DNA of 64,000 nt from an uncultured Bacteroidales bacterium (GCA_963838215.1 CAWIQG010000005.1:83310-147309); one strand, 5' to 3'. Positions 27,720 to 47,600 are shown, counted from the first letter of the stretch. Program-made: numbers and translations. Notes: a model not told the origin generated them from the letters alone.

Positions 27720-27733
27720 AGAAAAGACAGAAA

Positions 27734-29283: not shown

Positions 29284-29294
29284 TTATTTTTGCG

Positions 29295-30033: not shown

Positions 30034-32001
30034 CTAGTTCACAGGGATACATATTCTAAATCCAATTGCATCCCCTGTTGATCCACTAATATTTGTGTTA
30101 GATCTGAATTTATTCCTTAAAGATTCTTTTGAACAAGTGAAATCTCCACCTCTGATCACTTTGGTGCTTCCATTTTCAGGGCCTTTGGGATTTTTAAGAG
30201 GCGATCTTTTGTAATAAGCTTTATCATAGAAATCGCTGCACCATTCCCAAACATTGCCTGATAAATCATAGATTCCAAATGCATTTGGCTTTTTTGTTCC
30301 AACATTATTAAGCCTTCCTGAAGAATTTTCCTTATACCAGGCTATTTCATTAAGGTCATCTGAACCACTATAAATATATTTATCACTTCCTGAAGCAGAA
30401 TATTCCCATTCAGCTTCAGTTGGGAGCCTTCCAAAGAATGTTTTACAAAACATGTTTGCCCCATTCCACGTGACTCCCGTAACAGGTAAATTCTCAGAAT
30501 CAACTCCAATTTTGAAAATACCATTGTCATAAATGATATTTTTATTCTTTGATAAATCAATGACTGATATATTATTTATTATTCCTGAAGCCGAACAATC
30601 AAATGCGTTCAAAAAGATAACAAATAACTTGTTGGTAATTTCTGTTTTACCTAGTAGAAATGAGTTTAGGCTGACCTGATGCTGCGGTTTTTCATCATCA
30701 TTACCATTATCATCACCCATGCCGAAAGTTCCTGCAGGAATGGATACAAGGTTTGGAGTAATGTAATTACTGGAAAGCTTAAGAATACATTCTTTCATCA
30801 TTTGCTTTGATTCCTGCTTTTTGGGGTCCAAAGTGACTGCCTCAGTTAAATACTTATGTGCTGTAATGTAGTCGTTCCCATTAAAAGCTTCTTTAGCTTT
30901 AAGAAATAGTTGATTCGTCTCACCAGCTGAATTCTTATTTGAATAGATGAAAAAGTACCATCCTGCCGCAATTAACAATAATACTATACCAAGAATCAAA
31001 AATATACTGAGTTTATTCTTTTGTTTTTTGTTTGTAGGATTATTATTTTCAGATGTACGGGTTTTAATCTTCTTCCCCCGTTTTTCCTGCGCTGTACCGG
31101 AAATACCTGTCTCATGATCCTTCTGACCTTCTTCCTGAATTCTTCTACGATTTATTTCAGAAAGGGTTATTATCGAGTTGAGGACATCATAAATGATAGT
31201 TCCGTTCTGTGGTCTTTCGTCAATATTTTTTTTCAGAGTACTCAGAATAAGACTCTTTAATTCTTTAGAAACTTTTATATCATCGGGAATTGGTGGTGGA
31301 GGTTCATGAACTACTTTATAAAGTGTGGCTGTAGGATTATCGGAATAAAAAGGAACTCTTCCTGTCATTGCTTCATACATAACGACTCCAAAACTATAAA
31401 TATCACTTCTTCCATCTATCACTTCACCCCTTGCTTGTTCTGGACTCATAAATTCAGCTGTCCCAAGAATTGCTCCACTCAAAGTCATTGTCTTATCCTG
31501 ATGAAAAGCAATACCAAAATCCATTAGTACTGGTCTGTCATTTGAAGAAATAAAAATATTTGAACTTTTTATGTCTCTGTGGATAAGTCCATTTTGGTGA
31601 AGGTGATTCAAAGCATCTGCAATCGGAGCCATATATTTGACTATTTTAAGCTCATCCAGCCGACCCTCCTGCCTTATTATTTCTGATAAATTTTTCCCCT
31701 GAAGATATTCCATTGATATATAATGCAATCCATCTTCTGTTCCAAAATCATGTATTGTTACAATATTTGGATGTGAGAGTGTTGCTAAATCTCTTGCTTC
31801 CCTATAAAACCTGGATATAGATTCATTATCATTTACCAGATTCGGGTGAATAATCTTCAGTGCAATTTCCCTTCCCAGATTAATCTGGGTTGCCTTATAA
31901 ACTGTCGCCATACCTCCAGCACCAATTCTCTTGGTAATCTCAAATTTTCCTCCTAAGATTTTTCCAATTAACGGGTCGTTTTCTAAATGATTATCAAGCA
32001 T
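30034..32001 (-). CDS. Transmembrane Hanks-type Ser/Thr protein kinase with extracytoplasmic FGE-sulfatase (SUMF1-like) domain
   Basis: 655 aa. Kinase motifs GAGGMATVY, ALKI, HRDIKSSNIF, DFGIA and SPEQ lie in aa 1-285. A Lys/Arg-rich linker follows, then TM LSIFLILGIVLLLIAAGWYFFIY. The C-terminal FGE-type domain reads IPAGTFGMGDD...KPQHQV...VTGVTWNGA...LPTEAEWEY...GNVWEWCSD...RGG...GFRI. Confidence 0.88.
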   Translation of the reverse strand: MLDNHLENDPLIGKILGGKFEITKRIGAGGMATVYKATQINLGREIALKIIHPNLVNDNESISRFYREARDLATLSHPNIVTIHDFGTEDGLHYISMEYLQGKNLSEIIRQEGRLDELKIVKYMAPIADALNHLHQNGLIHRDIKSSNIFISSNDRPVLMDFGIAFHQDKTMTLSGAILGTAEFMSPEQARGEVIDGRSDIYSFGVVMYEAMTGRVPFYSDNPTATLYKVVHEPPPPIPDDIKVSKELKSLILSTLKKNIDERPQNGTIIYDVLNSIITLSEINRRRIQEEGQKDHETGISGTAQEKRGKKIKTRTSENNNPTNKKQKNKLSIFLILGIVLLLIAAGWYFFIYSNKNSAGETNQLFLKAKEAFNGNDYITAHKYLTEAVTLDPKKQESKQMMKECILKLSSNYITPNLVSIPAGTFGMGDDNGNDDEKPQHQVSLNSFLLGKTEITNKLFVIFLNAFDCSASGIINNISVIDLSKNKNIIYDNGIFKIGVDSENLPVTGVTWNGANMFCKTFFGRLPTEAEWEYSASGSDKYIYSGSDDLNEIAWYKENSSGRLNNVGTKKPNAFGIYDLSGNVWEWCSDFYDKAYYKRSPLKNPKGPENGSTKVIRGGDFTCSKESLRNKFRSNTNISGSTGDAIGFRICIPVN

Positions 32002-32005
32002 GGTT

Positions 32006-32233
32006 TTACTGTTTAATGAGGTTAGTATTCAATGAATCCAAATATTTTTTACCAAGGCTCCGTTCCATCACCAGCAAAGCAAAAATACGCAAAATTCTGT
32101 TAAACTTGTCAGGTTTCTTTATCAAGTTGGCTGAGGCTATGGAAGTACCCAGGGAAATGATAACTTTTGATAAATTGAAAAGTAAATCCTTCAAAAGACA
32201 TATTATTATTTCGGCAATTATTTTCATTTGCAT
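32006..32233 (-). CDS. Possible small protein (75 aa) between PP2C and kinase genes
   Basis: The ORF fills an otherwise anomalous 222-nt gap in a tightly packed gene train. It overlaps the PP2C stop by 10 nt and ends 4 nt before the kinase ATG. There is no motif, and an antisense ORF of similar length exists (32016..32255 +). Confidence 0.3.
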   Translation of the reverse strand: MQMKIIAEIIICLLKDLLFNLSKVIISLGTSIASANLIKKPDKFNRILRIFALLVMERSLGKKYLDSLNTNLIKQ

Positions 32234-33404
32234 AATTTTTCAGTGGGCGTATTAACTGTTAAAGCAATATTCTTCTTAGAAAATGCATGCCATTTAAAAT
32301 CAGAACTCAAAGGCGTTTTCTGAACTGAAATCACAAATGTACTGCTATCTCCAGAAGATGATTTGGCAACAACTGGAGAAACATTATACTCACTCTTCTG
32401 AAATATCAGAAACAAAACTGTACAGAGAATCAATATCACAATAAATATCATGGCTGGGAAAAAGAAATTTCTGATCTTCCTGATTTTGTTGATAGACCGG
32501 ACCTTTCCGAATGAAATACATAACGCTGATATATTGTCATTCGATCCCTTTTCAAATGCGTTATTAATCAGATTTTTAGCAAATGTTTCAGGATCAGGAC
32601 CATTTTGATAGATCTGAAAAAAATCCAGCTCATCTTTTTTAACTGATTTGTCTGTAATTAATCCGTCCGAACAAAGCAGGAATATTTTTGGAGTTCGCAA
32701 ACTAAGATAGTCCCGATGCTCCGGATAAATGTCAGGTTTATCATTTCCTCCACTTACTGATCGTGTAATAATATGAGAAAACTGATTAAAATAATCCGTA
32801 TTTATTTTCTCCCCTGGTTGTTCTTTAATACTTCTTCAATATATGAATGATCTTTTGTAATTTGTTCGACGCCGTGTGAATCAATTTTATATAACCTGCT
32901 GTCACCAATATTTCCCCACACGTAAGAACCATTATGAATTAACAAGACAACAAGTGTCGTGCCCATACCTAAATGATCTATGTCTTTTTCAACTTCTTCT
33001 CTTACAGCGACTTGTGTTTTCAGGAAACCTTCTTCAAGAACAGATTTAAGCTGCGTCGGAAGAATTTGTTCATGAAATGATTCTTTTACATGTGATAAGA
33101 AAGTATTGACAGCCAGTTGGCTGGCAATCTCTCCGTGTTCATACCCTCCCATTCCGTCGGCTACAATAAAAAGATAGGTTCTGTCATCTATCTTCTCACA
33201 AAGAAATGAATCTTCATTATTTGATCGACGTCCTGTAATTGACTCCCCGTAATAAGTAATATTTTCTTCCAATAATGTGCTTATTAATATTGAATTCGTT
33301 AACCTTCCATTAATGTTAATAATTTTTAAATATGGTCGCGTCCGTAAATAAGATCTCCAGGAGTATTGATCAATATTGTTTTTGAAGTTTGATTGAAAAC
33401 CCAC
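32224..33404 (-). pseudogene. PP2C-family Ser/Thr phosphatase with C-terminal TM segment, split by a one-base frameshift (pseudogene or sequencing indel)
   Basis: Track ORFs 32802..33404 and 32224..32700 are the two halves. The first carries GRRSNNEDSF, VADGMGGYEHGEIAS, GTT and GDSRLY. The second carries LLCSDGL, GSNDNISALCISF, then TM FFFPAMIFIVILILCTVLFLIF. The -1 frame reads through the junction as GEKINTDYFNQFSHIITRSVSGGNDKPDIYPEHRDYLSLRTPKIF. One extra G in the GGGG run (plus-strand CCCC ~32811-32814) restores a ~393-aa protein. Confidence 0.85.
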
Positions 33405-34855
33405 TCAACGATAGCCCATATTACCAGAATTGCAGAAAGTGCATAACCATTAACCAGGTGGAATATCTTTAAATCGCGAAAAAAGATTATAACAATCAGG
33501 ATGTCAAAAATGGTGGCACCGGTATATGCTATTATAAGAGCTCTCAGATAAAATCTACGTACTATACCTTTATAAATACTTTGCAGGTCACTGTTCGATA
33601 AACCAAAGGCTTTAAAGGTTCCAAGGTTGGTTTTAATTTTATCGAGGTGCGTTTTTAAGAGATTAAAAATAAACAATCCTACACTTATAATACTGAATAT
33701 AAGCAGCATGGTTGCCATGGTCGTTGTAAGAATACTAATAGCAATAAAGTTCTTCTTGTCCTGAACTTTTGACATTTCAACCACAAGTTCATGTTCTTCG
33801 AAGAGAAATTTTTCGAATAATTCTACTCTTGTCAGGGATTTAAATGACACTGAAATTTTATCGTATGCAATGTTTATTTCAGGATTCTGGGGAAAAGGAT
33901 AACGGTAATACCTGTACAGTTTATTGGCAAAACCATTTAGTCCCGGTGACTTCAGTATTTTATTATAGATATTATCAAGCGAATCAATGTTCTCCGGTTG
34001 AGGGGAAAAAGAAATATCAAGTTGATAAGCATCAATATATGTATCGGAATTCAGAGATAAATCGACTAATGGGTCCTTTCCTTTTAAAACAGAGTCAGAT
34101 TTAAGGAACTTTTCTATACGTTTCTTTACTTCTAAAACCTCGTTTTTATCTTTAGTCTGTACAAAAATTGTTAAACTCTTGTAATCTTCTATGTTAAAAG
34201 GGTTATCCTGGCCAATGATCAACATTTTAAAGAAGAAAGGAGTGTACGCAAAATCAGAAACACCCGGTAATTCTTTTACCACTGCAATTATTGGAACAGG
34301 AACCTGATAATTACCGGAGTCTTTTTTCAGCATCTGCATTTGCACGAAAAGATCGCTCATTGAATAGCCAAAATCAGATAGGAATTTCTGCGTAACAATA
34401 ATGCCGCAATCTCTGTTGTCATAAAATTTGTTTCTTCCGACAATCTTATTTTTCTCTCCAAGGACCTGTTTCAGGATAGGGCTTCCTGGTTCAATAGATT
34501 GACCCTTAGCCGGTCTGAATTCATTTTTTTTAATATTATAAAATGTCCTGGGATACTCCACAACAGCGAGAACAGTATCATATAAAAAAGCTGACTTATA
34601 GATTTCGCTATTAAGATCCGTTTTAATAGATTCAACTTCTTTTGATTTGCTGTATGGAACATCTACATCAAGGTTTTGAACAAACGGATCATTCATTCTC
34701 AGACTGAGATATTCTATTCCTCCTTTCGATATTGCAATAGCCATAAATGTCCCAAAAAGAATACCTGTTAGGATTAAAAGGTTTTTTCTTTTTTTCCCGT
34801 TTATTTCCTCTATTTCTCTTTTGGTGAAAAGTTTCTTGAAATCTTTATTAATCAT
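33326..34855 (-). CDS. FtsX/MacB-type ABC permease (4 TM, large extracytoplasmic domain)
   Basis: 509 aa. One N-terminal TM (LLILTGILFGTFMAIAI), an extracytoplasmic region of ~300 aa, then three C-terminal TMs with an FtsX-like loop (KAFGLSNSDLQSIY). 2-nt gap from the ATPase gene. Confidence 0.75.
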   Translation of the reverse strand: MINKDFKKLFTKREIEEINGKKRKNLLILTGILFGTFMAIAISKGGIEYLSLRMNDPFVQNLDVDVPYSKSKEVESIKTDLNSEIYKSAFLYDTVLAVVEYPRTFYNIKKNEFRPAKGQSIEPGSPILKQVLGEKNKIVGRNKFYDNRDCGIIVTQKFLSDFGYSMSDLFVQMQMLKKDSGNYQVPVPIIAVVKELPGVSDFAYTPFFFKMLIIGQDNPFNIEDYKSLTIFVQTKDKNEVLEVKKRIEKFLKSDSVLKGKDPLVDLSLNSDTYIDAYQLDISFSPQPENIDSLDNIYNKILKSPGLNGFANKLYRYYRYPFPQNPEINIAYDKISVSFKSLTRVELFEKFLFEEHELVVEMSKVQDKKNFIAISILTTTMATMLLIFSIISVGLFIFNLLKTHLDKIKTNLGTFKAFGLSNSDLQSIYKGIVRRFYLRALIIAYTGATIFDILIVIIFFRDLKIFHLVNGYALSAILVIWAIVEWVFNQTSKTILINTPGDLIYGRDHI

Positions 34856-34857
34856 TC

Positions 34858-35676
34858 CTATTTAAGTTTTTTATGTAACAACTCCTTTAAATCCAGAATC
34901 TCATTTCCCTTAAAGTCAATCCATTTTCTTTCCTCATTTGTTCCAGTGGACCTGAAAATATTTTCCTCAAAGATTTCCCCATAGCTGCCATTATCTTTAA
35001 CCATCATTATTATCTGATCTGCAAATGCAAGCGAAAGATCAATATTATGAGACACAATTATTGAAGTTCTGTTCTTTTCCCCTAATGCCTTTTGTATTAC
35101 TCTCATTAGTTCAACAGAATTATTCTCGTCCAGATTACCAGTCGGTTCATCGCCGAAAAGGACAGAAAACTCAGGAGTTATTGCTCTTACAAATGCAAGT
35201 CTTTGTCGCTGACCACCAGACAATTCAGTCACATGGGCATCCCTTTTTATTTCCTGCAAACCTACCTGTTCCATAGCTTTCTCAACTTTCGATAACGCCT
35301 GTTCAATCTTTGCACCCTGAATCAGCTGGGGGATGCAGGCATTCTCATAGGCAGTGAAGTTATGCATGAGGTTTGTGTTCTGGAATATAAAACTCATGTG
35401 AGAGTTACGTACATCTGAAAGGAGCTTTTCTTCAGTCCACAAATCAGATAAATTATAATGCTTTTCTATTTGAGGCATGAATCTTATTTCTCCTTCAGCG
35501 ATTGTATTGTTCATTAATCCCAGGGTTTCAAGAATAGTGCTTTTACCGGCACCTGATTTTCCAATCATGACAACAAGCTGGCCGCCCATAATCACTAGAT
35601 GTTTAATCTTCAGTACCGGATTGATACCATCATACGAACAGACCACATTATTTAATTCATAAATAGCTTGGGGCAT
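34858..35676 (-). CDS. ABC ATPase of the MacB/LolD/FtsE type
   Basis: 272 aa. Walker A GKSGAGKST, signature LSGGQRQR, and Walker B with the family-typical GDEPTGNLD. Confidence 0.88.
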   Translation of the reverse strand: MPQAIYELNNVVCSYDGINPVLKIKHLVIMGGQLVVMIGKSGAGKSTILETLGLMNNTIAEGEIRFMPQIEKHYNLSDLWTEEKLLSDVRNSHMSFIFQNTNLMHNFTAYENACIPQLIQGAKIEQALSKVEKAMEQVGLQEIKRDAHVTELSGGQRQRLAFVRAITPEFSVLFGDEPTGNLDENNSVELMRVIQKALGEKNRTSIIVSHNIDLSLAFADQIIMMVKDNGSYGEIFEENIFRSTGTNEERKWIDFKGNEILDLKELLHKKLK

Positions 35677-35678
35677 AA

Positions 35679-37550
35679 TTATTTAAATTTATTATAAACT
35701 TCATACTTAATATTTGGATTCAGGGTATTCATCTTTCTGCAAAAGTTTTGAAGTTCTGATTCCCTGGATGTGTTGTTTGGATTGTTAAAATAGAGATAAA
35801 CCAAAATCTGGGTATTACTGGTTGCAAGCATCTGATTGACTCTTTCAATGAATTCCTTCAGGAAAAAAGACCTGCCTTCCAGTTCGGACCTATAAAAGTA
35901 ATCAGAAACATCAAAATGGATAGTAATCTTGTTTGTTACAACTTTGATTCCTCCCATAAGTTTGTTTTCCAGCCTGAGTTTATCATTAAACAGATCGGGA
36001 AGCAATGAACTGGAATTTCTCATCTGCCCGGTGATCTGCTCAAATCCTGTTTCTCCATTGGTTATTATCGGGTCAACCCCTGAACTATAGTAAATCATAT
36101 CGCCAACTTCGTTCGATTGATTTTCTGCCGTCCATACCTGTTTAAGATTCATATATAATCTTTTTATCTCAGCCTGAAGCTGATCATTACTTTTTTCTTC
36201 AAGAGGGGCGCTATGATCGATATAAAATACGCTATACTCTTTATAGGTATCACCTTTGATCGAAATTTTATTTGGTTTAAAGAGAGTTAATTTAGCTAGA
36301 ATATCCAAAGAGAGCATATTCTGAGGCAACCAATAATAACTGAGACCCGAAAAGAAATGAAATTTCTCCACCTCTTTTTCTGAAATCAGTTTTTCATAAT
36401 TATCCCCAAACGTTTTAAAATATGAATCAAAGTCAATATCCTTGATTTCACTAACAGGTGTCGTCTCCATACCTGAATACTCTGAAAAATCCAGACCAAG
36501 AGTATATCCCCATAATTCAGCAACATTCATCGATCTTATCTTCAGATTGTTTGTGTCGATATTCCGGCTTACAAAATATCCGAATAATTCAGATCTGAGT
36601 AATTCTTTTACAGGAGAGTCTTTTAATATCTTTGCAAAATCTTTAACCGCTGCAAACTGAATGTCATCCATAAAATTTGCTTTCAGAAACCTTGCATCTG
36701 CTAAATTCAGATATTGAGTATCCACTGCCAGAGCCAGTGGATTCAAAATTTTTGCTGTTCTCTGGTTATCATTTAAATAGAAAAAACCTAAATGGGCATT
36801 GTGCTTATAAATTTTCATTGCAGCTCTTGCAGTGTCATTAGCACTTGTTCTTCCCCTTTCTGAAAAAGTATAGAGCTTCTGTCCTTCTTCAACTTTCTTC
36901 CAATCAGGAACATACGCCCTGTTGCTGTATATGATGGTTATATCTGATAATTTCACCCAGAAAACATCATTCCTGGTCAGATTTTCATGAACAATATCGG
37001 TTACACTAAGCAGTAATGCATCAGTTTCCTGTTTTAAAACAAAATAAGCATCAAATACACTATCTGCAATTTGTTTATTTAACCCGGGCATATTTGACGG
37101 AAGATTTCTGTTATCCGGATTTTTCTTTATAAGAGCCCTAACAATTACCTTGTCAACACTGAGATTCCTCATTCCCAGAACCAGGTCCTGCTTTTTGACC
37201 CAACCTACTTCAATTGCACTTGCAGTAAATCTATAATTATTAGTTAGCAGTGCAGTTCCTCTTTTCTTAACAAGGCGGACTGCATCTTCAGTTTCATCCC
37301 ATACAGCAAAATACTGAAGAAATTTTTCAGTACCTTTCTGGTTCAGACACTCTTTGTCGCTGTAAACAGGTATATTGTCTTTTGCTGCCATAACATACCA
37401 CACATTTTCGCCTCTTTCATTTGACACAGAAGTGCTCATACCCGGATAAGGCGCTTCATACTTAAGAGGCATTTTTGGGAAAAAATCTCCTTCCTGACCA
37501 TACAAAAGTAATGGTAAAAGAATTCCCAATATTATAAGAATCTTTTTCAT
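35679..37550 (-). CDS. Exported protein, vWA-less paralogue of the two upstream vWA proteins
   Basis: Start taken at internal MKKILIILGILLPLLLYGQ (signal peptide). It shares the N-terminal module (P-M/L-x-Y-x-x-P, W-V...GWVKK...) and the internal SYYWLPQNML motif with 37561..39915 and 39927..42283. It has no DxTxS MIDAS motif and carries a unique ~185-aa C-terminal extension. Confidence 0.7.
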   Translation of the reverse strand: MKKILIILGILLPLLLYGQEGDFFPKMPLKYEAPYPGMSTSVSNERGENVWYVMAAKDNIPVYSDKECLNQKGTEKFLQYFAVWDETEDAVRLVKKRGTALLTNNYRFTASAIEVGWVKKQDLVLGMRNLSVDKVIVRALIKKNPDNRNLPSNMPGLNKQIADSVFDAYFVLKQETDALLLSVTDIVHENLTRNDVFWVKLSDITIIYSNRAYVPDWKKVEEGQKLYTFSERGRTSANDTARAAMKIYKHNAHLGFFYLNDNQRTAKILNPLALAVDTQYLNLADARFLKANFMDDIQFAAVKDFAKILKDSPVKELLRSELFGYFVSRNIDTNNLKIRSMNVAELWGYTLGLDFSEYSGMETTPVSEIKDIDFDSYFKTFGDNYEKLISEKEVEKFHFFSGLSYYWLPQNMLSLDILAKLTLFKPNKISIKGDTYKEYSVFYIDHSAPLEEKSNDQLQAEIKRLYMNLKQVWTAENQSNEVGDMIYYSSGVDPIITNGETGFEQITGQMRNSSSLLPDLFNDKLRLENKLMGGIKVVTNKITIHFDVSDYFYRSELEGRSFFLKEFIERVNQMLATSNTQILVYLYFNNPNNTSRESELQNFCRKMNTLNPNIKYEVYNKFK

Positions 37551-37560
37551 TGATATGATT

Positions 37561-39915
37561 TTAGGGTAAATAGCTTTGCGGTATCCAATACCAGGCTCTG
37601 TCATTTGAAAGAAAAAGGAATTCTTTGTTACCCGACAAGCGATTAAGGTCATCTCTCTTCTTTTTAATATTGTTAACTATATCATCAAATTCAGAATCTG
37701 ACACTACATTGAGATCACTCAAATCGTTCATCTTGTATTTCTGTAACAAAGGGTTCAATGATGGCAAGCCTGTTATTAATCCCATAAGTTCAGCCAGATT
37801 TTTATTAGCAATTTCATCCGGAGTGACCCCATAGTTGGCCCTGAGTATTTCCATCCAGCTCTCCCTTAACTTCTCTCTTCGTTTAGACTGTGTCTGATTC
37901 GGATCATAAATTTTATCAAGAGTTACCCTTAGATCATCGAACTCAGGTTGATCCAGAAACAAAACATAGTTATAAAGAGGGGTTACCATGCTGTCAATTC
38001 TTACAGGTGTATGGCCTCTAAGCATAAACTGATAATTCTTCTGCCTTATAATATTGATCTGGTCCACTGTAAAACCGGCTTTCATTAAAAGTTGAATGAC
38101 TTCCTGTGAAAATCCTGATTCCTTGCTTAAGTCTTCCGGAACAACATTCAGCAATTTTCTTAGCTCAGAAATCAGGCTGTCATTTCTGCTGTTAGTTAAA
38201 GTGATCATTCTTTTCACTAACTTCTGAGCCATATCTGCAGGGATTTGATGACCCTGGGTAACGTATTGCAATTCACCGTTTACAGGGCTATACTGAAGTG
38301 TAAAAAGGGTTTTGTTTTCCTTATCCTGTACCCAGCGAGGCCGGCTGTTGAGAGAGGTCAGATTAAGTGTTCCATATTTTTGTTTCAGGATTTCTGATAT
38401 TCCTTCAGCATTTTTCCTTCCCAGTTCATTTAGCTGTGTAATAAAATCCTCGTAGGATATATCCTTTTCATGATGCACCTGTATGCACAGAATGCCACAA
38501 CTGTATTTTTTAATTAAAGGAATTACATCTGATTCAGTAATGCGGCCTTCTCCTTCACGATCGCCTGAATCTCCTATCACTATAATAATATTAGTCTGTT
38601 GTTCAAATCCTCTTAAAACGTTGTCAACTTTTTTAAGCCCGAGATACATTCCTTCCGATGTAGTATTATCCCTGCATGCAGGCTCATCAGCGTCAACGGT
38701 AGCCATAAACCTCACAAATTGATTATAATCAGATAATTGATGAACTAAATAGCAACCATCATCTTCAGGTTTTTCATAATCGCGATATACCACAGCTCCA
38801 TATTTGAAACTATTTTCCGAATTCTGTACTGCAGCGGCGCTCTCCAACACAGCCTTACGTACCGATTCAAGATATGGGCCCATGGATTCGGTACCATCTA
38901 GAACAAAAACCAGATTAATATATCGTGATCTGGCTATCTGTTCGTTTAACATTCTCTGGATGTCAAGCATCTGGTCATTTTTTACATGCGTTCCATTTTC
39001 CTGAACCAGATCACTCACAACAGCCGTTTCAACTAAATTTCCTGCTTTTCTGAGAACAGGAAGGCGTTTCCAGTAAGGGCTATATCTGACGGTATAACGA
39101 TCATCGTTCCAAAAAGCAGATGATCCATCCCGTGTGGAAACAAATAGTTTTGCCTTTGTTGAATCGGTAAATAACGAACTTTTAATATTTAATTTAATCC
39201 GCTCTGCAGCAGCCTCCTTATCCCAGTTTGGTTCCAGTGCCTGACGCTGGTCCCAAACCTGCACACTCGATATATCCACCCAACCATTAACATAGTCGGC
39301 TAAGTTTCCGCGCGAGATATTATCCTTCTTACTGACCAGATACCTGTTACCTTCTTTCTTAAGAATGAAGAAGAATTCAAAAAGAGGAGTTTCTTTACTA
39401 TTCGGTGAGGCTGCAGCCGGAGAATCATAGAAAGCAAGCTTTTTTGCACCCTCCTTTATCCTTTCCATTTCGTGTTGCATCATCTCCGGGGTTGTAATGG
39501 TCATTACCTTAAGTCTGAAATTGGTTTTAGAACTATACAGTGTGCTTGGTGACAAGACACAGAAAGCTTTATCAACCCAGCCAAAATCATTTGGTTCCTG
39601 CATAAATTCTCCTACGCTTGCGCTGAAGGTTCCATCGTCACTTACAATATGAATCATTTTATCTTTCTCTTCCACAACCAGGAAACGATCCAAAAACTTC
39701 GGTGTTTTACCATTGCTTGTAGTTACACCTGCCCTGTCAATCCAGACGCTCCAATTCTGATTGCTGAGCGTGTTTGTACTATTAAGATCAGCAATCGACT
39801 CGAAGTTTGGTTTCAGATATTTAACCGGCATTCTGAGAGGTTGCTTCCCGGCAAATGGTTGCCCCGATAATGTGAATGGGCAGATTAGTAGTATTAAAAC
39901 GAATAGGTTTTTCAT
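37561..39915 (-). CDS. Exported von Willebrand factor A (vWA/MIDAS) domain protein with N-terminal SH3-like repeats and conserved C-terminal module
   Basis: 784 aa. Signal peptide MKNLFVLILLICPFTLSGQ. MIDAS-type LVFVLDGTESMGPY...IIIVIGDSGD. Ends in DRAWYWIPQSYLP. Confidence 0.8.
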   Translation of the reverse strand: MKNLFVLILLICPFTLSGQPFAGKQPLRMPVKYLKPNFESIADLNSTNTLSNQNWSVWIDRAGVTTSNGKTPKFLDRFLVVEEKDKMIHIVSDDGTFSASVGEFMQEPNDFGWVDKAFCVLSPSTLYSSKTNFRLKVMTITTPEMMQHEMERIKEGAKKLAFYDSPAAASPNSKETPLFEFFFILKKEGNRYLVSKKDNISRGNLADYVNGWVDISSVQVWDQRQALEPNWDKEAAAERIKLNIKSSLFTDSTKAKLFVSTRDGSSAFWNDDRYTVRYSPYWKRLPVLRKAGNLVETAVVSDLVQENGTHVKNDQMLDIQRMLNEQIARSRYINLVFVLDGTESMGPYLESVRKAVLESAAAVQNSENSFKYGAVVYRDYEKPEDDGCYLVHQLSDYNQFVRFMATVDADEPACRDNTTSEGMYLGLKKVDNVLRGFEQQTNIIIVIGDSGDREGEGRITESDVIPLIKKYSCGILCIQVHHEKDISYEDFITQLNELGRKNAEGISEILKQKYGTLNLTSLNSRPRWVQDKENKTLFTLQYSPVNGELQYVTQGHQIPADMAQKLVKRMITLTNSRNDSLISELRKLLNVVPEDLSKESGFSQEVIQLLMKAGFTVDQINIIRQKNYQFMLRGHTPVRIDSMVTPLYNYVLFLDQPEFDDLRVTLDKIYDPNQTQSKRREKLRESWMEILRANYGVTPDEIANKNLAELMGLITGLPSLNPLLQKYKMNDLSDLNVVSDSEFDDIVNNIKKKRDDLNRLSGNKEFLFLSNDRAWYWIPQSYLP

Positions 39916-39926
39916 ATTTAAATTTG

Positions 39927-42283
39927 TTAGGGCAAATAACTTTGAGGTATCCAGTAATATGCACGATCGTTAGACATAAAGTAAAATTGCTTATTCCCGG
40001 CAATTTTTGATAATAATTCACTTTTATCCTGAATGTCCTTTAATATCTGATCAAACTCCATATCAGGAAGCCTTGTAATGTCAAGGATATCTTTAAATGT
40101 ATATTTCTTAAGGATCGGGTTCGGTGAAGGGAGCCCTGATATCAGGTTCATTACATCAGAAAATGATTTATTTTGAATTTCTTCCCGGCTGACTCCATAG
40201 TTCGCCCTTAATACTTCAAACCATGCATCTTTAAAGCTTTGGCGACGCTGATAACCGGTAAGTCCCGGTGTATAAATTTTGGTAAGAGATATAATCAGAT
40301 CATTCAATTCTTCTGCGTCAAGAAAAATATCAAACTTATATATCGGGTTGGTAAGTTTTTGCACTTCAAATGATGTATACGTTTTCAGAAGAAACTGATA
40401 ATTCTTCTGAGTAAGGATAGAAATCTGTTCATTGGAATATCCTGCATCTTTCAAAAACAATTTCACTGCCGGGGAGAAAGAACCTATTTTTGTAGGGTCT
40501 ATTACAGTGATACTGTTTATAAGATTATCCACTGTCCTCAATAATGAGTCGGTCCTAATGTTCATGTCGTTGATCATTTTTTCAATGATCTTGCTTGTAG
40601 TGGCTTCTGTTAAGCTTTTTCCTAGAGAGACATACTGCAAACCTCCGGTCAATGGGCTGTTCTGAAGAGTATAAAAACCAATATCCTCATTGTTTTCATG
40701 CTTCCACCTTGGCCTTGCCGAGGCAGAAAGTACCTGCTGATTTCCAAATGCCTTTTCATTCTCTTCAGCAATTTGTATCGAAGTTCTAAGAATCATATCA
40801 GGTACCTCGATAACAAAATCTTCATAGGACTGGTTTTTAGGGTGATGAACCTGAATCGCAACCATATTGATCCTGTTTTTTACCAGGTTGGGATAACATC
40901 AGATTCTGTAACACGTTTTGGTCCTGGCCGATCCGCAGCATCACCTATCAGAATGATAATATTTGTTTCTTTTTCTTTACCACGGAAAAGGGCTCTGGCT
41001 TTATTTAATCCAAGGTATAATCCCTCTGAGACTGTGTTGTCAAAACATGCAGGATCATTTGTATTGCAGGCTCCGAGTTCAGCACAAAACCGATCAATAC
41101 TGTTACCCAGGGGTATTGTGTTATAGCATTTATCATTTGCAGGGTCATCATAGTCTCTGTAAACAATTGAACCGAACTGAAAACTGTTATCAGAATTATA
41201 TAATCTTGTTGCACTGTTTTTTACAGCATCCTGCACCGATTTGAAGTATGGTCCCATGCTTTCTGTACCATCAATCACAAACACAACATTAATGTTGCGT
41301 TTTTTTTCGTGAAGATCAGTTTGAAGGGACTGAAGCCCTCTATAGGATTCTTCAGTAATTTTCTTTCCCGATTCATTAACCAGATCACTGACAACTGCTG
41401 TTTCGATAAGGTTACCGGTCCGGTTGAAGACCGGGAGTCTTTTCCAGTTTGGACTAAATTTCTTTTCAAATGGATCATCCGCCCAGAAATTCCTTGTTGT
41501 ATCCCCGCTATTTCCATAGTTCAGGGCTTCTTCACTTGTTTCGAATAAAGCTGCCGGTGTTTTATTCTGTCTTCTCTCTTCACTCGAAACCTTATCCCAA
41601 TCAGGTTCAAGAACCTGACGCATCTCCCAGAGCTGTACCTTCGATTCATCAACCCACCCCATAAGATAATAACCAGCATTTCCTTTGGAAATATTATCCC
41701 TCCGACCTAATAATAAACGGTCACCTTCCTTTTTAAAGACGTAAAATATCTCAAAAAGAGGTAATTCGTTAATATTCTCATGCGTTGTAGTCGGATTAGA
41801 GAAAAAATTCATTTTTTTGCCTTCAGCTTTTATACGTTCAAGTTCGCCCTTCATTTGTGAAGGGGTTGTTATAGTCATTACCTTTATCCTGAAGTTGGTT
41901 TTATCGCTATACAAGGCAGTGGGCCATAATAACATATCAGACTTTGGCACCCATCCATAATCAGTTGGTTCACTAATAAATTCATCAGTTGCACTGTTGT
42001 AGCTTCCGTTCTCCATAACAATATGAATTCTGTCTGAAGCTTCCTCAACTACAAGAAAGCGGTCGGCAAAATTAAGTTGTTTGCCGTTCGAGGAAACTAT
42101 GCCCTCTCTGTCAGCCCATACAGCCCATATATTTCTTCCTGGTTTAGACTTTCCGATTTTTGTGGAGAGTTTTGGTTTTTCATAATCGGATGGAGATCTC
42201 ATTGGAGATTTTCCAACAAAGTTTTGAGAAGTTGCACACAGACTACCCGATAAAAATATGATCACAAGGAAAAGATTCTTCAT
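39927..42283 (-). pseudogene. Second exported vWA-domain paralogue, split by a one-base frameshift (pseudogene or sequencing indel)
   Basis: Track ORFs 40880..42334 (start better at MKNLFLVIIFLSG, 42283) and 39927..40865. The first ends ...TESDVIPTW* and the second begins MVAIQVHH. The intact paralogue reads ...TESDVIPLIKKYSCGILCIQVHH. The -1 frame reads NLVKNRINMVAIQVHH, so one extra C in the CCC run (plus-strand GGG ~40890-40892) restores an equal-length protein. MIDAS VVFVIDGTESMGPY is present. Confidence 0.85.
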
Positions 42284-42290
42284 TAATTCG

Positions 42291-43217
42291 TTAGTTGTTA
42301 ACAGTTTTCTTATCATAGGTGACCAATTGCACACTTGATATCTTTTTATTTGGATTAAGCTGAATTTTTACAGTTATACTCACTAACTCATAAGGATTAG
42401 ATTCAATCACTATTTTTCTTACAAAATCTTTAAACGATCCAGTTTCCTTACCTCCAATTGGTATCTCTCCATTGTTCAGGCAATAACTACAAACTTTTAT
42501 GCTAAGGTCCCTTTGTTCTTTTTCCTCAGTACCTGAAACAGTTTTATTAGCGAGAGATGTCAACCACTTGGAGAATTTATTATCATCTACCTGTTCGAGT
42601 ATTTTAATTGTTTTTGTATCAAATACTTTTCCTGAAGCCTTATCAATCAATTTTACCACGTATTGGCCAACCTCAGCAAAAGATACCTGACCAATTGTAC
42701 TTTCAGAGGTCGATTTACCTCCAAAATCCCAAACAACCGGATTAATAGCTTTGGTTGAATAACCTATTACATCGCCTGTATAGGCTATTACAGGCCAAAT
42801 AACAATAACAGGGCTTTTCTTTACAGTGTCTTTTTTGGCAGGCGCCTCTTTCCCGGCAACTATAGAATCGCGACGAACAATGGGCTCAGTTGAAGCCTCT
42901 ATAACAATTTTCAGATCCATTGAATCTGCTTGGTTCCCTTTTGCAGCTTTAATCATAGGATTGAATATGCCTTTCTTATTATAGATATGGATAGGATTTA
43001 ATTCTGTAGAATAGGAACCATCGCCAAAATCCCATGATATCTTGTCAAAATTTTTCGAAAGATTCTTAAACCGGACAGTATCTCCGACAGTGAATTGCCT
43101 TTTGTCTGGTGAAAAATCTGCTATGGGTTTTTCTTTTACTTTAGGCCTGCATGAGTTTAAACCAATGCCAAGCATACAAAGGATCAGAATGTGCAAAATT
43201 TTCTTAAAACTGTACAT
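42291..43217 (-). CDS. PKD-domain lipoprotein
   Basis: 308 aa. Lipobox LGIGLNSC. PKD signature VRFKNLS...WDFGDGSYS...HIY, and a second weaker PKD-like unit (WDFGGKSTS...GQYVVKL). Confidence 0.75.
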   Translation of the reverse strand: MYSFKKILHILILCMLGIGLNSCRPKVKEKPIADFSPDKRQFTVGDTVRFKNLSKNFDKISWDFGDGSYSTELNPIHIYNKKGIFNPMIKAAKGNQADSMDLKIVIEASTEPIVRRDSIVAGKEAPAKKDTVKKSPVIVIWPVIAYTGDVIGYSTKAINPVVWDFGGKSTSESTIGQVSFAEVGQYVVKLIDKASGKVFDTKTIKILEQVDDNKFSKWLTSLANKTVSGTEEKEQRDLSIKVCSYCLNNGEIPIGGKETGSFKDFVRKIVIESNPYELVSITVKIQLNPNKKISSVQLVTYDKKTVNN

Positions 43218-43228
43218 AATTTATAATT

Positions 43229-44665
43229 CTATAGTTTGAGATAATTAACATTTTTCTGGGTGTTACCCGTCCTTGATAATTTTTTAATCCCAATAGTAAT
43301 TCCGATTACTGAGAGGTTTATATTTCCCATTTCCGACATAATACTATTATAAACAGGACTCTTACTGGCGTCAGTTGTGTTTGGAGTTAATAGTGCTGAA
43401 CTCTTGACTTTTGAAGAAAAATTAAGAAAAGCCTGATTATAATTCACCCCTACATATAATTGATAGCTATTACGGAGTCTGAAAAACATTCCCAATTCAA
43501 TATTGCCGGATGCATTGATTGGGTTTATCGGAAGAGTACCTTTACCTGAATAAGTCTGATCATCATTGAAACCTAATGCAGGAATTTCCTGAAGTGTGAC
43601 ATTGTACTGAGGATAATATCCTAAACTTGAGTAATTGGTTTTAATGTTATAAGTTCCTTTATAATAAGATAATACTACCCCCGCATTCATATAGAATCCA
43701 TTGTTCTGACTAAACGATTTTTCATAATTTAACTTAACAGGGAAATTAAACCCGGTAATTGAAATATTTTCACTCAGAGCACTAAGGTTCATTATCTGAT
43801 AATATGTGTCTTTGTCCGCATCCGCTGTCTCTTCGGCACTTAAATACCCGACTGCAGAATAATTTGATGATAAATACGATATTCCCAAACCGACTGATCC
43901 TCCGATTTTATAAGTTTCAAAATTTTTGAAAAGATAACGTAGTTCACCCTCAATTCCAAATCCGGCTTTTGACTGCACTTTTTGTCCTGTGATTATACTT
44001 TCAGTCATCTGATTATTGAAACTGAAATTATCTAACCCGGCATTTAATGAAAGAATTTTTTCCCAGTGTGATATCTTTGTGAAAGGAGCCACATAGGTCC
44101 ACTTACTCTCTCCCGACTTAACTATTTCAGTAATAAGAGGATCGCAGGTAATAGTGTCATTAATTCTTAACCTGAGATCCTGGCAGGTTGAAGTTTCGTA
44201 CCTGGCGCCCGAGGAGTTTTTTGAATAAGCCTGTATCTCTTTTTTTATTCTTACAGAAACAACCAGACCTTTCTTATCAATTTTAATTCTGCCGTACAGA
44301 GTGCCGGCATCAGTCTCTGTAAGCCTGCAATACAAATTCATGTAATTATCGCTGATGTCTTTTACATAATCTGAAACCTTTTTTTGTTTTTCATTTATTG
44401 TTGTTTCATTATTGTTGATATAGTTCGGAGATATATCATCAAAAACTATAACGCTGTCGTTCAGGAAAAACTTAAGAAATTTATCTTTTTGATTTTCCGT
44501 TATTTTATTTCCTTCAGAGAGAGTGGAATAAAACTCATAGTGTCTTATCAGACTATCGATATTATGAAGGAGCAGAATTTGTTTTTCTCTTGATAATTTT
44601 ACAGTCTGACCAGGCAGCAAAACCCCGGAAACGGCTAACAAAAAACAAAATATAAGCTTTCTCAT
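43229..44665 (-). CDS. Exported hypothetical protein, C-terminal half beta-barrel-like
   Basis: 478 aa with signal peptide MRKLIFCFLLAVSGVLLPGQ. The C-terminal ~270 aa shows alternating hydrophobic/aromatic strands with G/S/N turns (GFGIEGELRYLF, GGSVGLGISYL, GFYMNAGVVLSYY, ELGMFFRL, LYVGVNYNQAF). The start lies 1 nt after the adhesin stop. Confidence 0.55.
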   Translation of the reverse strand: MRKLIFCFLLAVSGVLLPGQTVKLSREKQILLLHNIDSLIRHYEFYSTLSEGNKITENQKDKFLKFFLNDSVIVFDDISPNYINNNETTINEKQKKVSDYVKDISDNYMNLYCRLTETDAGTLYGRIKIDKKGLVVSVRIKKEIQAYSKNSSGARYETSTCQDLRLRINDTITCDPLITEIVKSGESKWTYVAPFTKISHWEKILSLNAGLDNFSFNNQMTESIITGQKVQSKAGFGIEGELRYLFKNFETYKIGGSVGLGISYLSSNYSAVGYLSAEETADADKDTYYQIMNLSALSENISITGFNFPVKLNYEKSFSQNNGFYMNAGVVLSYYKGTYNIKTNYSSLGYYPQYNVTLQEIPALGFNDDQTYSGKGTLPINPINASGNIELGMFFRLRNSYQLYVGVNYNQAFLNFSSKVKSSALLTPNTTDASKSPVYNSIMSEMGNINLSVIGITIGIKKLSRTGNTQKNVNYLKL

Positions 44666-44666
44666 C

Positions 44667-47600
44667 TTAATTGGAATTAACTATTATTTTCGCAATAGCT
44701 CTCATGTTACCCTGGATAATATCTATAAAGTATATCCCGGGTTTTAATTTCGTTCCCTGATTAATATCAGTACTTTGCACAGTCAATACGGTTCCCGATG
44801 TCATCTTTTGAACCGTGTTAGGATATGTCTTACCGAAATAATCTCGTACAAAGACCTGTATTGAGCTACTCGCTGTGAGACCATTTACTGTAACTGTGAA
44901 CTGGCCATTATTTGGATTTGGAGCCACTGTAACCGGGAGATTAAGCCCGGGGGAAACCGGAATGATTACTCCACCCTGTTCATAGTATACTTTTGTTGTA
45001 CACTCATTCTTATTGGTTGTTATAACCCAATATTTGGTCAAGTCTGACAGATCGGTCGGTATAAAATACTGTCCTGTTGCACCAGATATATTACCGGATG
45101 CGTCACCCCACTGATATTTTACGGAATCAGCATTTGTACAGATCAGAATATTATTCCCTTTCTTAAGAACAGCATCAGGTGGAGGCGATTTATCTACTGT
45201 TAGAACCGGTACATCCGACGACGTTATATCCGTTGTGACAGAATCACCCCGCAATACCTGATTATTGACGCTTACGAGGCTGTCTTCCAGAAATTTTGAT
45301 ACTATTTTGCAACTAAATTGATAACCATTGAATGTATTCAGTATACTGTCCAGAGACAAAATATTTGTATTTTCGCCATTATGTTTTAGAAACGGGGGGT
45401 TTGTTATATCTTTCCAGTCATCTGTCGTATTTTCACGATATTGCCATTCATATTTTTGAAATACCCCTGTTGAGCTGACAGAAAATCCGATATTGCTATA
45501 TTCACAGGACTCCTTGGAGGTGGGTTGTGAGGTAATTTCAATTTTCGGATAAACAATAAGGATACCTGTTGTATAGCTGATACTATAATTGTTATCTACT
45601 GGAGCAACAGGAAAATCAATCCAATAATCAGGTGCAGGAGGAATTATCGGAGGGCTCGAGGCAGTACAATTTGTTGTCAGATTTAAAGAAAAATCAAGAG
45701 TATTAATGTCACCAGGAAATTTAAGATCTGAAGTGACAACGTAAGCTTCCATATCAGGTAATTCGTCTCCCTGAAATTTATTAATGTTATGAATGGATAA
45801 CCTGAGGTTTGCCTTTGTAACAGTGAAGGTTCCATTATTATAATTAATGTCATAGTTCGAGGCTAAAAACCCACCTGTACCAGTTGCCATTGATGGGGTC
45901 ACAACAAAGGCAGTTCCGGCATCAGTAGCAGCTGAAAGACCTGCCGCATCAGGGGTAAGGGTTACACTTGTTACCAATTCACCAGGTACTTCTTCGCTAT
46001 TTGTCGTGAAATACGTCGTATTGGTTCCGGCTGTTAAAGCTGTCCCGTATTCTTTGGTTGGCCCAGTGGCAATGATCGTTAATGGTTTCTTTGCTACTAC
46101 ATCCTCGTAAGGTAAATAAGTGACAGCATAGTTGCTTTCAAGAAAGCCTCCGGTACCGGTTACCATTGATGGAGTAACAACATAGGCTGTTCCCGCTGGA
46201 GCTGTAGCTGAAAGACCTGCCGCATCAGGGGTTAGTGTAACGCTGGTTACTATCTCACCTGATATTTCTCCGCTGTGCGTAAAATTCGTTGTACTGGTTC
46301 CTGCCGTTAAGGCTGTACCATAAGTCTTTGCCGGTCCTGTGGCAGTTATAGTCAGATCTTTGGGGATAATATCAGCAGTTGTTGTTGATACACTTGCCAG
46401 GTAGTAGTCTGCAGCATCTGCACCGGAAAGGGAAGCTCCTGTTAAAGTGACAGTTTTTGTGGTTCCCACATCTTTGGTGTCGAACGTTGATGTTCCCCCC
46501 GCAAGTGTTACATCATCCGGTGAAATGACACCGTCGAGAGAACGCGAAAGTTCAATTGTGCCGGTGTTACCATCATATATCTTATTGTCAACGATAAAGC
46601 TCCCGGTGATAGACAATGGGGTAATGTCAGCCGTAGTTGCTGATACACTTGCCAGGTAGTAGTCTGCTGCATCTGCACCGGAAAGAGAGGCTCCTGTTAA
46701 AGTGACAGTTTTTGAGGTTCCCACATCTTTGGTGTCGAACGTTGATGTTCCCCCGGTAAGTGTTACATCATCCGGTGAAATGACACCGTCGAGAGAACGC
46801 GAAAGTTCACTTGTACCGGTGTTACCATCATATATCTTATTTTCAACGGTAAAGCTCCCGGTGATAGACAATGTGGTAATGTCAGCAGTTGTTGTTGGCG
46901 CACTTGCCAGATAGTAGTCTGTTGCATCTGCCCCGGAAAGAGATCCAGTTAAAGTGACAGTTTTTGAGGTTCCCACATCTTTTGTGTCGAACGTTGCTGT
47001 TACTCCGGTAAGTGTTACATCATCCGGTGAAATGACGCCGTCGAGAAAATACGAATGTACAATCGCGCTGGTGTTACCATCATATATCTTATTGTCAACG
47101 GTAACGCTTCCGGTGATAGACAATGGGATAATGTCAGCAGTTGTTGCTGATACACTTGCCAGGTAGTAGTCTGCTGCATCTGCACCGGAAAGGGAGGCTC
47201 CTATTAAAGTGACAGTTTTTGAGGTTCCCACATCTTTTGTGTCGAACGTTGATGTTCCACCGGTAAGTGTTACATCATCCGGTGAAATGACACCGTCGAG
47301 AGAACGCGAAAGTTCACTTGTACCGGTGTTACCATCATATATCTTATTTTCAACGGTAAAGCTCCCGGTGATAGATAATGTGGTAATGTCAGCAGTTGTT
47401 TCTGATACACTTGCCAGGGAGTAGTTTGCTGCATCTGCCCCGGAAAGGGAAGCTCCTGTTAAAGTTACGGTTTTTGAGGTCCCCACATCTTTTGTGTCGA
47501 ACGTTGATGTTCCACCGGTAAGTGTTACATCATCCGGTGAAATGACGCCGTCGAGAAAATACGAATGTACAATCGCGCTGGTGTTACCATCATATATCTT

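Follow-up and report, generated by a model that had tools for sequence, protein, structure and literature searches.

Tandem TssR-family genes of an uncultured Bacteroidales bacterium lie in a conserved ABC-transporter-linked gene cassette that may have branched off from, or be sister to, the membrane complex of T6SSiii

Three tandem genes lie on the minus strand between positions 35679 and 42283 of a 64,000-nucleotide stretch of DNA from an uncultured Bacteroidales bacterium (GCA_963838215.1 CAWIQG010000005.1:83310-147309; this whole stretch is the window hereafter), and their products belong to TssR, a protein family of the Bacteroidota type VI secretion system (T6SSiii). Open reading frames (ORFs) called in this region span 40880-42334 (start set at 42283) and 39927-40865, which together make up copy A, 37561-39915 (copy B), and 35679-37652 (start set at 37550; copy C), and labels such as L001 and P0013 denote related loci and related proteins, respectively. 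A first-pass annotation had described the three as same-strand paralogues of an uncharacterised exported family, and their paralogy was borne out by pairwise BLAST and hhalign. With its reading frame repaired (see below), copy A (785 aa) was 45% identical to B across the full length (788 columns, E=0); copy C matched the N-terminal part of A (26% identity over C residues 1-225/226, E 2.7e-14) and, with residues 288-413, the C-terminal module of B (residues 653-783; 27% identity, 135 aa, E 4e-4); and hhalign aligned 212 N-terminal columns of C to the A/B profiles with a probability of 99.2%. The similarity extends far past signal peptides and low-complexity segments, in support of an exported, duplicated, and diverged set that shares one layout.

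Signal peptides, judged by eye, end in ...LSGSLCATSQ (A), ...LLICPFTLSGQ (B), and ...LLLYGQ (C), with Gln after the likely signal peptidase I (SPI) site in all three and a Cys but no clear lipobox in A and B. The P-(L/M)-x-x-P-x-x-Y segment noticed in the first pass is conserved within each subfamily; family alignments give the A/B-type consensus GKxPxRxPxKY, with P30 and P36 invariant, and invariant M27, P28, K30, and Y31 in the C-type proteins. Likewise, the shared terminal motif NDRAYYWIPQSYLP is conserved throughout the A/B-type family, and the internal SYYWLPQNML of C aligns with it, the common part (SYYWLPQ in C, YYWIPQ in A/B) falling inside the alignment of the C-terminal modules. Two further units had been likened to SH3 domains: the regions themselves correspond to the TssR N barrel and TssR_M of Pfam, and Foldseek support for the SH3 label was faint, consisting for C of weak matches (9a7d, rank 1; 3h41, rank 12; 6bim, rank 38) to NlpC/P60-type proteins and a YrvJ-YacD model, all bearing bacterial SH3 domains.

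Pfam places A, B, and C among the TssR families (PF17643, PF20780, PF20782, and PF20781), so the protein family already has a name and is not new. The C-terminal module, which had been left without a named domain, is TssR_C (PF20781; 77.6 bits in B, 56.7 in A, and 24.9 in C). Additional matches were to TssR_VWA (100.6 bits), TssR_M (24.1), and the N barrel (16.6) in B, and to TssR N (27.6), TssR_M (23.6), and TssR_VWA (64.4) in A; copy C matched TssR N (30.4 bits) and no other TssR domain beside TssR_C. The TssR order of N barrel, second domain, inserted domain of the von Willebrand factor A (vWA) type, and C-terminal domain was found, and the AlphaFold2 (AF2) model of B concurs. NCBIfam gave no match for A, B, C, or for the neighboring PKD protein, barrel, or permease described below. 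TssR is one of the five T6SSiii membrane-complex proteins TssNQOPR, of which it is the outer part (Bongiovanni et al. 2024, PMC10781749); the B. fragilis protein, a lipoprotein of ~790 aa (D1, 1-231; vWA D2, 277-558; D3, 232-276 and 559-790), has TssN, TssO, and TssP (which contains PKD) as binding partners and is needed for Hcp secretion, and the molecular function of its C-terminal module is still undefined (PMC10781749). We read A and B as periplasmic components and not as the surface adhesins implied by the earlier term "adhesion-type binders", one of the two being a likely pseudogene.

The presence of a vWA domain of the metal ion-dependent adhesion site (MIDAS) type in two of the copies is supported. 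In copy B, a signal peptide is followed by two beta domains at the N terminus, the inserted vWA domain (~332-550), and the TssR_C module, and its AF2 model reached a pLDDT of 84 and a pTM of 0.74. Foldseek matches were confined to the vWA region, where they were to vWA domains and domains like integrin beta I, with no solved counterpart of the N and C modules among its top 50 matches, and a sequence search of the PDB with B returned no match. DGTES and IGD(S/A), the two motifs first noticed, are conserved in A and B, and a D-x-T-x-SEG T-loop completes the DxTxS...T...D variant in both. The residues are D340-G-T342-E-S344, T418/T419 (DNTTSEG), and D449 (IGDSGD) in B and the motifs DGTES, DNTVSEG, and IGDAAD in A; in the model of B, the first motif follows strand E332-340, the second precedes helix H423-434, and the third follows strand E441-448. 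Across an alignment of A, B, and close relatives, D-G-T-x-S-M, D-x-T-x-S-E-G, and G-D-(S/A)-G-D are conserved, and the first MIDAS Ser is Thr throughout the clade linked to ATP-binding cassette (ABC) transporter genes. The A/B site is thus a complete predicted MIDAS in which Thr replaces the first Ser. T6SS-linked TssR proteins that we examined have a degenerate MIDAS: the Chryseobacterium proteins keep DxSxS without the beta4 Asp, and the VgrG-adjacent P0024 has DGSEW and IGSAGN. An intact site here versus degenerate sites there points to a putative metal-dependent contact.

Copy C had been set apart as the member without a vWA domain. That its role differs from that of A and B is supported: it represents a separate conserved type, present in every cassette of the window kind (defined below), rather than a recent decayed duplicate: C-type proteins of ~590-640 aa are encoded after the vWA-type gene in each such cassette, with orthologues in the same position in L001, L002, L007, L009, L012, L023, L026, L035, and L039. 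A profile search of 1.84 billion representatives yielded 211 matches to C, of which only ~20 were full-length C-type proteins. Its architecture comprises the TssR N barrel, the TssR_C module with no inserted vWA domain, and a C-terminal domain of ~185 aa that was thought to be unique. This tail is in fact homologous to standalone ~210-aa ORFs in L018, L019, L022, L032, and L041 (E 1e-16 to 1e-40, small set), encoded between the PKD gene (tssP) and the TssR gene, and its model (residues about 435-620) matches the vWA folds of Rpn10, TFIIH p44, and integrin I domains by Foldseek (E 1e-4 to 1e-3, target TM about 0.5). The vWA domain is therefore absent from C at the canonical inserted position, and the tail is predicted to have that very fold. 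The AF2 model of whole C is poor (pLDDT 55), with only ~50-125 and 435-620 usable and a pLDDT of about 56-81 in the tail. Within the C-type tails, D445-x-S447 is invariant (D445-H-S447 in C) and no further MIDAS residues are kept, and we predict a divergent vWA-fold domain with a degenerate MIDAS. The label rests on the predicted fold because the profile-profile comparison of the tail with the TssR vWA domain was not significant (hhalign probability 0.9%, E 0.06), its sole alignment setting DHS opposite DGTES.

Copy A, taken at first for one intact gene, is split by a 1-nt deletion near 40888. Its first piece (467 aa) ends in ...DVIPTW-TAA and the second (312 aa) resumes in another frame (NLVKNRIN-MVAIQVHH), the lesion being CCA-AAC changed to CCAAC (window positions 40880-40900). 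We infer a deletion because restoring one base gives the peptide NLVKNRIN, identical to orthologue P0013. The Logan assembly of ERR10755942 yielded an independent sequence, L037, with 99.986% identity (1 mismatch/7303 nt, no gaps) and the same two-ORF split, so the frameshift is probably real. With an intact 784-aa orthologue in L007, copy A is likely a pseudogene, an inactivated duplicate of B. Programmed frameshifting or phase variation was considered for copy A and rejected, as CCAAC is not a long tract and the orthologues are in frame. In a relative, the A-type protein P0016 no longer has its MIDAS (EGTEN, GQ). Separately, the single vWA-type TssR-like gene of L039 (7676-10044) likewise appears as two separate ORF calls (276 and 478 aa), which suggests that disruption of such genes recurs among metagenome assemblies.

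The three genes sit within a compact operon (Table 1), in which all genes from the giant gene through the permease gene are on one strand with intergenic gaps of at most 11 nt. Just 7 nt upstream of A lies the PKD lipoprotein gene, whose product is 28% identical to Chryseobacterium TssP (L003) over 172 aa (E 7e-10), so that these TssR-family genes stand next to a tssP-like gene. The 478-aa product encoded before it is, by virtue of its orthologues, a probable outer-membrane beta-barrel. At the head of the operon, the 3389-aa protein has 16 MBG_2 and nine YDG stretches and a Por_Secre_tail match of 23.6 bits that falls below the cut-off of 27, and we propose that it is a surface or secreted fibre exported by the type IX secretion system (T9SS); proteins with a T9SS C-terminal sorting domain (CTD) occupy the same position in L001, L002, L007, L009, L022, L032, L039, and L041. 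As an observation on the sequence itself, 44667-54836 contains long near-identical MBG_2/YDG units with a G+C content of ~0.44-0.46 versus ~0.35 in the flanks, and repeats of this kind are prone to collapse or expansion in assembly.

Table 1. Genes of the TssR-family cassette and adjoining signalling genes, with positions in the window
Feature	Position	Strand	Basis
Ser/Thr kinase-transmembrane segment (TM)-FGE	30034..32001	-	Pfam Pkinase 180 bits, FGE-sulfatase 169 bits; TM 333-351
Membrane-anchored PP2C phosphatase, split	32224..33404	-	ORFs 32802-33404 and 32224-32700; PP2C_2 55.4 bits
FtsX-like permease	33326..34855	-	Pfam FtsX E 4.6e-4, 20.7 bits (below cut-off); hydropathy
ABC ATPase, LolD/MacB/FtsE type	34858..35676	-	Pfam ABC_tran 80.4 bits
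Copy C, 623-aa TssR-derived type	35679..37550	-	Pfam N barrel and TssR_C; BLAST/hhalign; Foldseek (tail)
Copy B, intact 784-aa TssR-like protein	37561..39915	-	Pfam, AF2, Foldseek, MIDAS alignment
Copy A, TssR-like with vWA/MIDAS	39927..42283	-	Split ORFs 40880-42283 and 39927-40865; Pfam, frame analysis
TssP-like PKD lipoprotein, 308 aa, lipobox-like LNSC	42291..43217	-	Pfam PKD_4 48.3 bits
478-aa exported protein	43229..44665	-	No own Pfam match; orthologues in L002, L022, L032 match OMP_b-brl_2
3389-aa repeat protein with T9SS C-terminal sorting domain	44667..54836	-	Pfam
RyR-SpoIIE	55205-57067	-	PP2C-type phosphatase, Pfam
TIR-SpoIIE	57145-58578	-	PP2C-type phosphatase, Pfam

Downstream of C, the ABC ATPase has LolD, FtsE, and MacB as its best NCBIfam matches, every one below its cut-off, and hydropathy of the permease gives TMs at 25-43, 382-400, 440-458, and 464-482, with a periplasmic domain of ~340 aa after TM1 (orthologues are 30-32% identical). 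A four-TM permease with a TM1-TM2 periplasmic domain and a LolD/FtsE-like ATPase is the composition of a type VII ABC transporter. Such transporters (MacB, LolCDE, FtsEX) perform mechanical work in the periplasm, and the permease topology, together with the giant or large T9SS-CTD protein and barrel genes that head the operon in most loci, brings to mind a machine for assembling or anchoring the surface protein, in which the ABC transporter would drive the TssR-like and PKD proteins to insert, anchor, tension, or release the fibre at the barrel and the kinase would only tune the process. We regard this as improbable: the CTD protein varies in kind (MBG/YDG here, Ig/PKD in L032 and L041; 1-7 kb), no CTD protein was detected at the equivalent place in the TssR-ABC loci L017, L020, L024, and L027, and T9SS cargo requires no such helper in the systems studied.

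Next in the operon, the PP2C gene is frameshifted near 32790-32800, close to a GGGG/AAAA run, leaving ORFs of 200 and 158 aa, the product having a C-terminal TM by hydropathy; intact orthologues are 259 aa (L007) and 287 aa (L039). The kinase gene is intact, and hydropathy puts its domain related to formylglycine-generating enzyme (FGE) sulfatases in the periplasm, with kinase-FGE orthologues in the same operon in L007, L009, L020, L023, and L039. In the window, the RyR-SpoIIE and TIR-SpoIIE genes lie upstream of the giant gene, and in L039 (17458-20895) they directly follow the kinase gene; found beside the cassette in two different arrangements, the pair accompanies it and, judging from this synteny, appears functionally tied to it. 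PADLOC found no known defence system in the window, only generic kinase and ABC domains and a weak TIR match.

Further genes border the operon. Upstream of TIR-SpoIIE and on the same strand, 59151-63294 encodes three exported proteins (498, 430, and 317 aa) that start with signal peptides and that neither Pfam nor PADLOC matched with confidence (the 498-aa protein had only a sub-threshold match to UPF0164); none was found in any related locus fetched, and a search with the 317-aa protein, at the window's edge, returned only one 2.5-kb contig. On the other side, 26541-29900 holds a divergent operon for a LarC-like nickel-insertion protein, a LarE-like PP-loop ATPase, a LarB-like protein resembling AIR carboxylase, and a WbqC-like protein, unrelated to the genes considered here.

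An indexed search returned 33 relatives of B, and a genome scan returned 28 loci, all in uncultured metagenome-assembled genomes (MAGs) and nearly all in Bacteroidota (Cyclobacteriaceae, Flammeovirgaceae, Flavobacteriales, Bacteroidales, Paludibacter, Chitinophagaceae, and Cytophagaceae); 17 of these 28 carry an ABC gene immediately downstream of the TssR-like gene. Three architectures can be told apart. Classical T6SSiii loci include L040 (ClpV, TssG, TssN, TssF, TssE, TssO, TssP, TssR, and VgrG), L005 (TssP-TssR-VgrG-Rhs), and the Chryseobacterium locus L003 (TssO-TssO-TssP-TssR), a PKD gene preceding the TssR gene in all three. Intermediate loci include L022 (TssO-TssO, T9SS-CTD protein, barrel, TssP, ~210-aa protein, TssR) and L018 (TssO-TssO, an unannotated interval, then TssP, ~210-aa protein, TssR, and at once PAAR), as well as L032, L041, and, by a phmmer map, L019, which have the same core followed after TssR by a fused MacB-like ABC protein of ~810-820 aa; L032 additionally has PAAR and a pesticin-like toxin, and L041 has TssO. 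Window-type loci run in the order CTD protein, barrel, PKD, one or two vWA-type TssR-like genes, C-type gene, ABC ATPase, and permease, with no TssO, and number about ten uncultured Bacteroidota MAG or metagenome loci, namely those listed above for C orthologues. B-type identity is 35-62% in eight of them (L001, L002, L007, L009, L012, L023, L026, and L035), and L039, which was reached by way of the C-type protein, shows 64% identity in that protein.

The signalling genes beside these cassettes vary by locus, from TIR/RyR-SpoIIE to iSTAND-MoxR, Tubulin_2-trypsin, and PGAP1 lipase-vWA modules. FHA, PP2C, and kinase-FGE genes follow the cassette in L007 and L009, and the same three occur in L020 without a C-type gene, the FHA gene lying between permease and PP2C in each; L023 has PP2C and kinase upstream, and L039 has PP2C, kinase-FGE, TIR-SpoIIE, and RyR-SpoIIE consecutively. 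An FHA query found no match in the window. With this gene absent, A and PP2C frameshifted (A also in the independent assembly), the MIDAS lost in P0016, and the single vWA-type gene of L039 split too, the cassette might be a decaying remnant without present function in this particular genome. That is very unlikely in our judgment, given that B, C, the PKD protein, the barrel, both ABC genes, the kinase, and the 10-kb giant ORF are intact and tightly spaced, and that relatives with one vWA-type gene (L001, L002) show A to be dispensable.

Several related loci hold neighbors worth recording. Past its cassette, L002 (16583-22409; L013 is the same) encodes iSTAND, a MoxR-like AAA_5 protein, and a 1776-aa fusion of WG_beta_rep with TssR N, TssR_VWA, and TssR_C, which places a TssR-like vWA domain in an iSTAND-type ternary system. 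After the ABC pair of L024 (14512-19486) and L027 (12729-17616) come ORFs of 409-423 and 126-131 aa, then an ~830-aa Tubulin_2 (FtsZl1) protein and a trypsin-like protease. Their sizes had suggested a T6SS sheath, Hcp, and ClpV, an assignment rejected by Pfam for L024 (829 aa, Tubulin_2; 269 aa, trypsin-like protease; no match for the 423- and 131-aa ORFs); only L024 was scanned individually, the assignment for L027 coming from an aggregate scan with two members in each family. L020 (18548-21001) has an 818-aa PGAP1-like lipase-vWA fusion, a possible effector, between PP2C and kinase, and the genes downstream in L030 are ribosomal (Pfam).

Our best reading of the sequence evidence is that A, B, and C encode what would be the periplasmic TssR-family scaffold layer of a conserved envelope-spanning cassette. 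Outside would be the giant T9SS-exported repeat fibre and the outer-membrane barrel; in the periplasm, the TssP-like PKD lipoprotein, the MIDAS-bearing B, and the C-type protein with its TssR N and C modules and small vWA-like domain; and in the inner membrane, the MacB/Lol-type ABC transporter and the kinase with its FGE-like periplasmic domain. TssR-like and PKD proteins would then bridge the barrel and fibre to the ABC transporter and kinase. Under this model, the metal-dependent vWA site of B may clamp an acidic residue of a partner, the best candidates being the FGE ectodomain of the kinase, the PKD protein, and the barrel; the ABC transporter may give ATP-driven periplasmic movement or report the state of the envelope; and the state of the surface or outer membrane would be relayed to cytoplasmic Ser/Thr phosphorylation (kinase, PP2C, TIR-SpoIIE, and RyR-SpoIIE, with FHA in relatives). 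Family membership, architecture, membrane topology, synteny, and conservation are the observed part of this account, to which the contacts and the direction of signalling within the cassette are added by inference. We tentatively hold, at a little short of an even chance, that the cassette branched off from the T6SSiii membrane complex, or is its sister, and serves sensing and signalling rather than being the core complex itself, and favor signalling because the parts list matches, at the level of domains, that of the H1-T6SS switch of Pseudomonas. Arguing against a core T6SS role, none of the T6SS core Pfam families (TssB/C, Hcp, VgrG, TssE/F/G/K, ClpV, and TssN/O/Q) occurs in the ~40 annotated ORFs of the window, no T6SSiii gene set accompanies the TssR genes within its 64 kb, and phmmer with TssO, PAAR, and VgrG queries found no match there.

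A related reading makes the cassette a T6SS-independent trans-envelope machine, with TssP/TssR-like parts on a MacB-type ABC platform and the fibre and barrel coupled to kinase/PP2C/TIR signalling, ancestral or sister to the T6SSiii membrane complex. We consider such a machine quite possible, though with the balance against it; if true, it would be what Bongiovanni et al. sought in vain among 1253 complete genomes, a "membrane complex without T6SS" (PMC10781749).

By a third account, these genes are an ordinary tssP-tssR part of a T6SSiii that has its remaining genes at other sites in the genome, and the genes for the ABC transporter, the kinase, and the phosphatase would be a Bacteroidota threonine-phosphorylation firing switch. 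Some observations weigh on this side: all three copies match TssR in Pfam, and the PKD-TssR adjacency is that of the classical loci L003, L005, and L040; further, and also against our preferred signalling offshoot, two TssO genes (L022), PAAR (L018), PAAR with a pesticin-like toxin (L032), and TssO (L041) stand beside the same CTD/OMP/TssP/TssR/ABC module; and T6SSiii genes are often spread across several loci (PMC10781749), and a T6SS may be encoded elsewhere in the genome, with the TssO-TssO-TssP-TssR of Chryseobacterium L003 as an example of a part standing by itself. Two more points tell against the preferred reading in other ways, in that the TssR N (16.6) and TssR_M (24.1) matches of B lie under the 25.7-bit gathering cut-off, and in that the frameshifts in A and PP2C and the absence of the FHA gene from the window mean that the signalling branch may be decaying here. 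Nevertheless, tssQOPR are usually contiguous (PMC10781749), and yet no TssO, TssQ, or TssN lies beside the ~10 window-type cassettes, whereas classical and intermediate loci have TssO next to these genes; identity between B and T6SS-linked TssR is just 20-27%; the C-type protein and intact MIDAS are specific to the window clade; and no T6SS core family with at least two members emerged when 115 flanking ORFs, taken from 16 related loci, were run against Pfam in aggregate (single-member families partly listed). On these grounds we think the ordinary T6SSiii account rather unlikely.

TssR and TssP have been known solely as parts of the Bacteroidota T6SS membrane complex, and the loci described here, all from uncultured Bacteroidota, show TssP/TssR-like pairs wired to an ABC transporter, a barrel, a T9SS surface protein, and a kinase/phosphatase set. 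Classical loci, intermediate loci (with TssO and PAAR), and window-type loci form a series of architectures for testing how the T6SSiii membrane complex arose, and suggest that T6SSiii or a relative can be governed by an envelope sensor resembling TagQRST/PpkA. We found no description of the window-type cassette in PADLOC or in the sections searched of the T6SSiii membrane-complex paper, the T6SS accessory-factor review, and the vWA conflict-system survey, and the same sections mention neither its link to an ABC transporter nor the C-type fusion, an intact MIDAS, or the kinase-FGE module. The 2026 review of T6SS accessory factors (PMC13584744), in the parts searched, gives no TagQRST/PpkA-like pathway for T6SSiii, and the main text of the survey (PMC7159879) has no match for "ABC".

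Compared with known systems, the closest is TssR itself, with ~790 aa, N-terminal beta domains, an inserted vWA domain, and a C-terminal module, a conserved terminal Y-W-(I/V/L) that the window clade extends to YYWIPQxYLP, and a gene that directly follows that of a PKD protein (TssP, in B. fragilis the binding partner of TssR). Unlike TssR, the window proteins have low identity to T6SS-linked members, signal peptides that by eye look SPI-type (cleavage before Gln) and not like lipoprotein signals, an intact MIDAS, a C-type paralogue, and an ABC transporter, and are encoded without T6SS core genes in 64 kb or adjacent TssO, TssQ, and TssN. Resemblance to type VII ABC transporters (MacB, LolCDE, FtsEX, and BceAB) lies in the four-TM FtsX-type permease with its large TM1-TM2 periplasmic domain and in a separate ATPase nearest LolD, FtsE, and MacB, or a fused MacB-style protein (~810-820 aa) in related loci; in contrast, the FtsX score is below cut-off, MacB_PCD gave no match, and TssR-like partners take the place of any MacA/TolC-type or LolA-type partner.

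Operons of vWA, kinase, and PP2C genes and of FtsZl1 (Tubulin_2) and vWA genes (Makarova and Koonin 2010, PMC2875224) also couple vWA domains with Ser/Thr kinase, PP2C, and FHA, and have a counterpart in the Tubulin_2 and trypsin genes of L024 and L027, as the vWA-MoxR ternary systems (Kaur et al. 2020, PMC7159879) do in the iSTAND, MoxR-like AAA_5, and TssR-like fusion of L002. MoxR chaperones and FtsZl1 are cytoplasmic, however, whereas the vWA proteins here are exported and tied to an ABC transporter, TssP-like proteins, and outer-membrane proteins.

Finally, the TagQRST-PpkA-PppA-Fha1 pathway of the Pseudomonas aeruginosa H1-T6SS offers a parallel in its list of parts: TagT and TagS are a LolD-like ATPase and a LolE/FtsX-like permease, TagR supplies a periplasmic domain of the FGE family and PpkA one of the vWA type, and the set further includes a Ser/Thr kinase that spans the membrane, PP2C, FHA (here in relatives only), and an outer-membrane lipoprotein. 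The window holds the kinase-TM-FGE part of such a module intact and PP2C frameshifted, with FHA only in L007, L009, and L020. COG1262 is the FGE family. TagR belongs to COG1262, TagS to COG4591, and TagT to COG1136 (PMC13584744), and the periplasmic vWA domain of PpkA interacts with TagR (PMC3224232). The likeness is at the domain level, and the two systems differ in phylum and in that FGE is on the kinase and vWA on free TssR-like proteins here, the reverse of TagR and PpkA. By this analogy, the logic of the cassette would be that of TagQRST-PpkA-PppA-Fha1 with vWA and FGE swapped, a swap that is as expected if the FGE-vWA contact is a conserved signalling joint.

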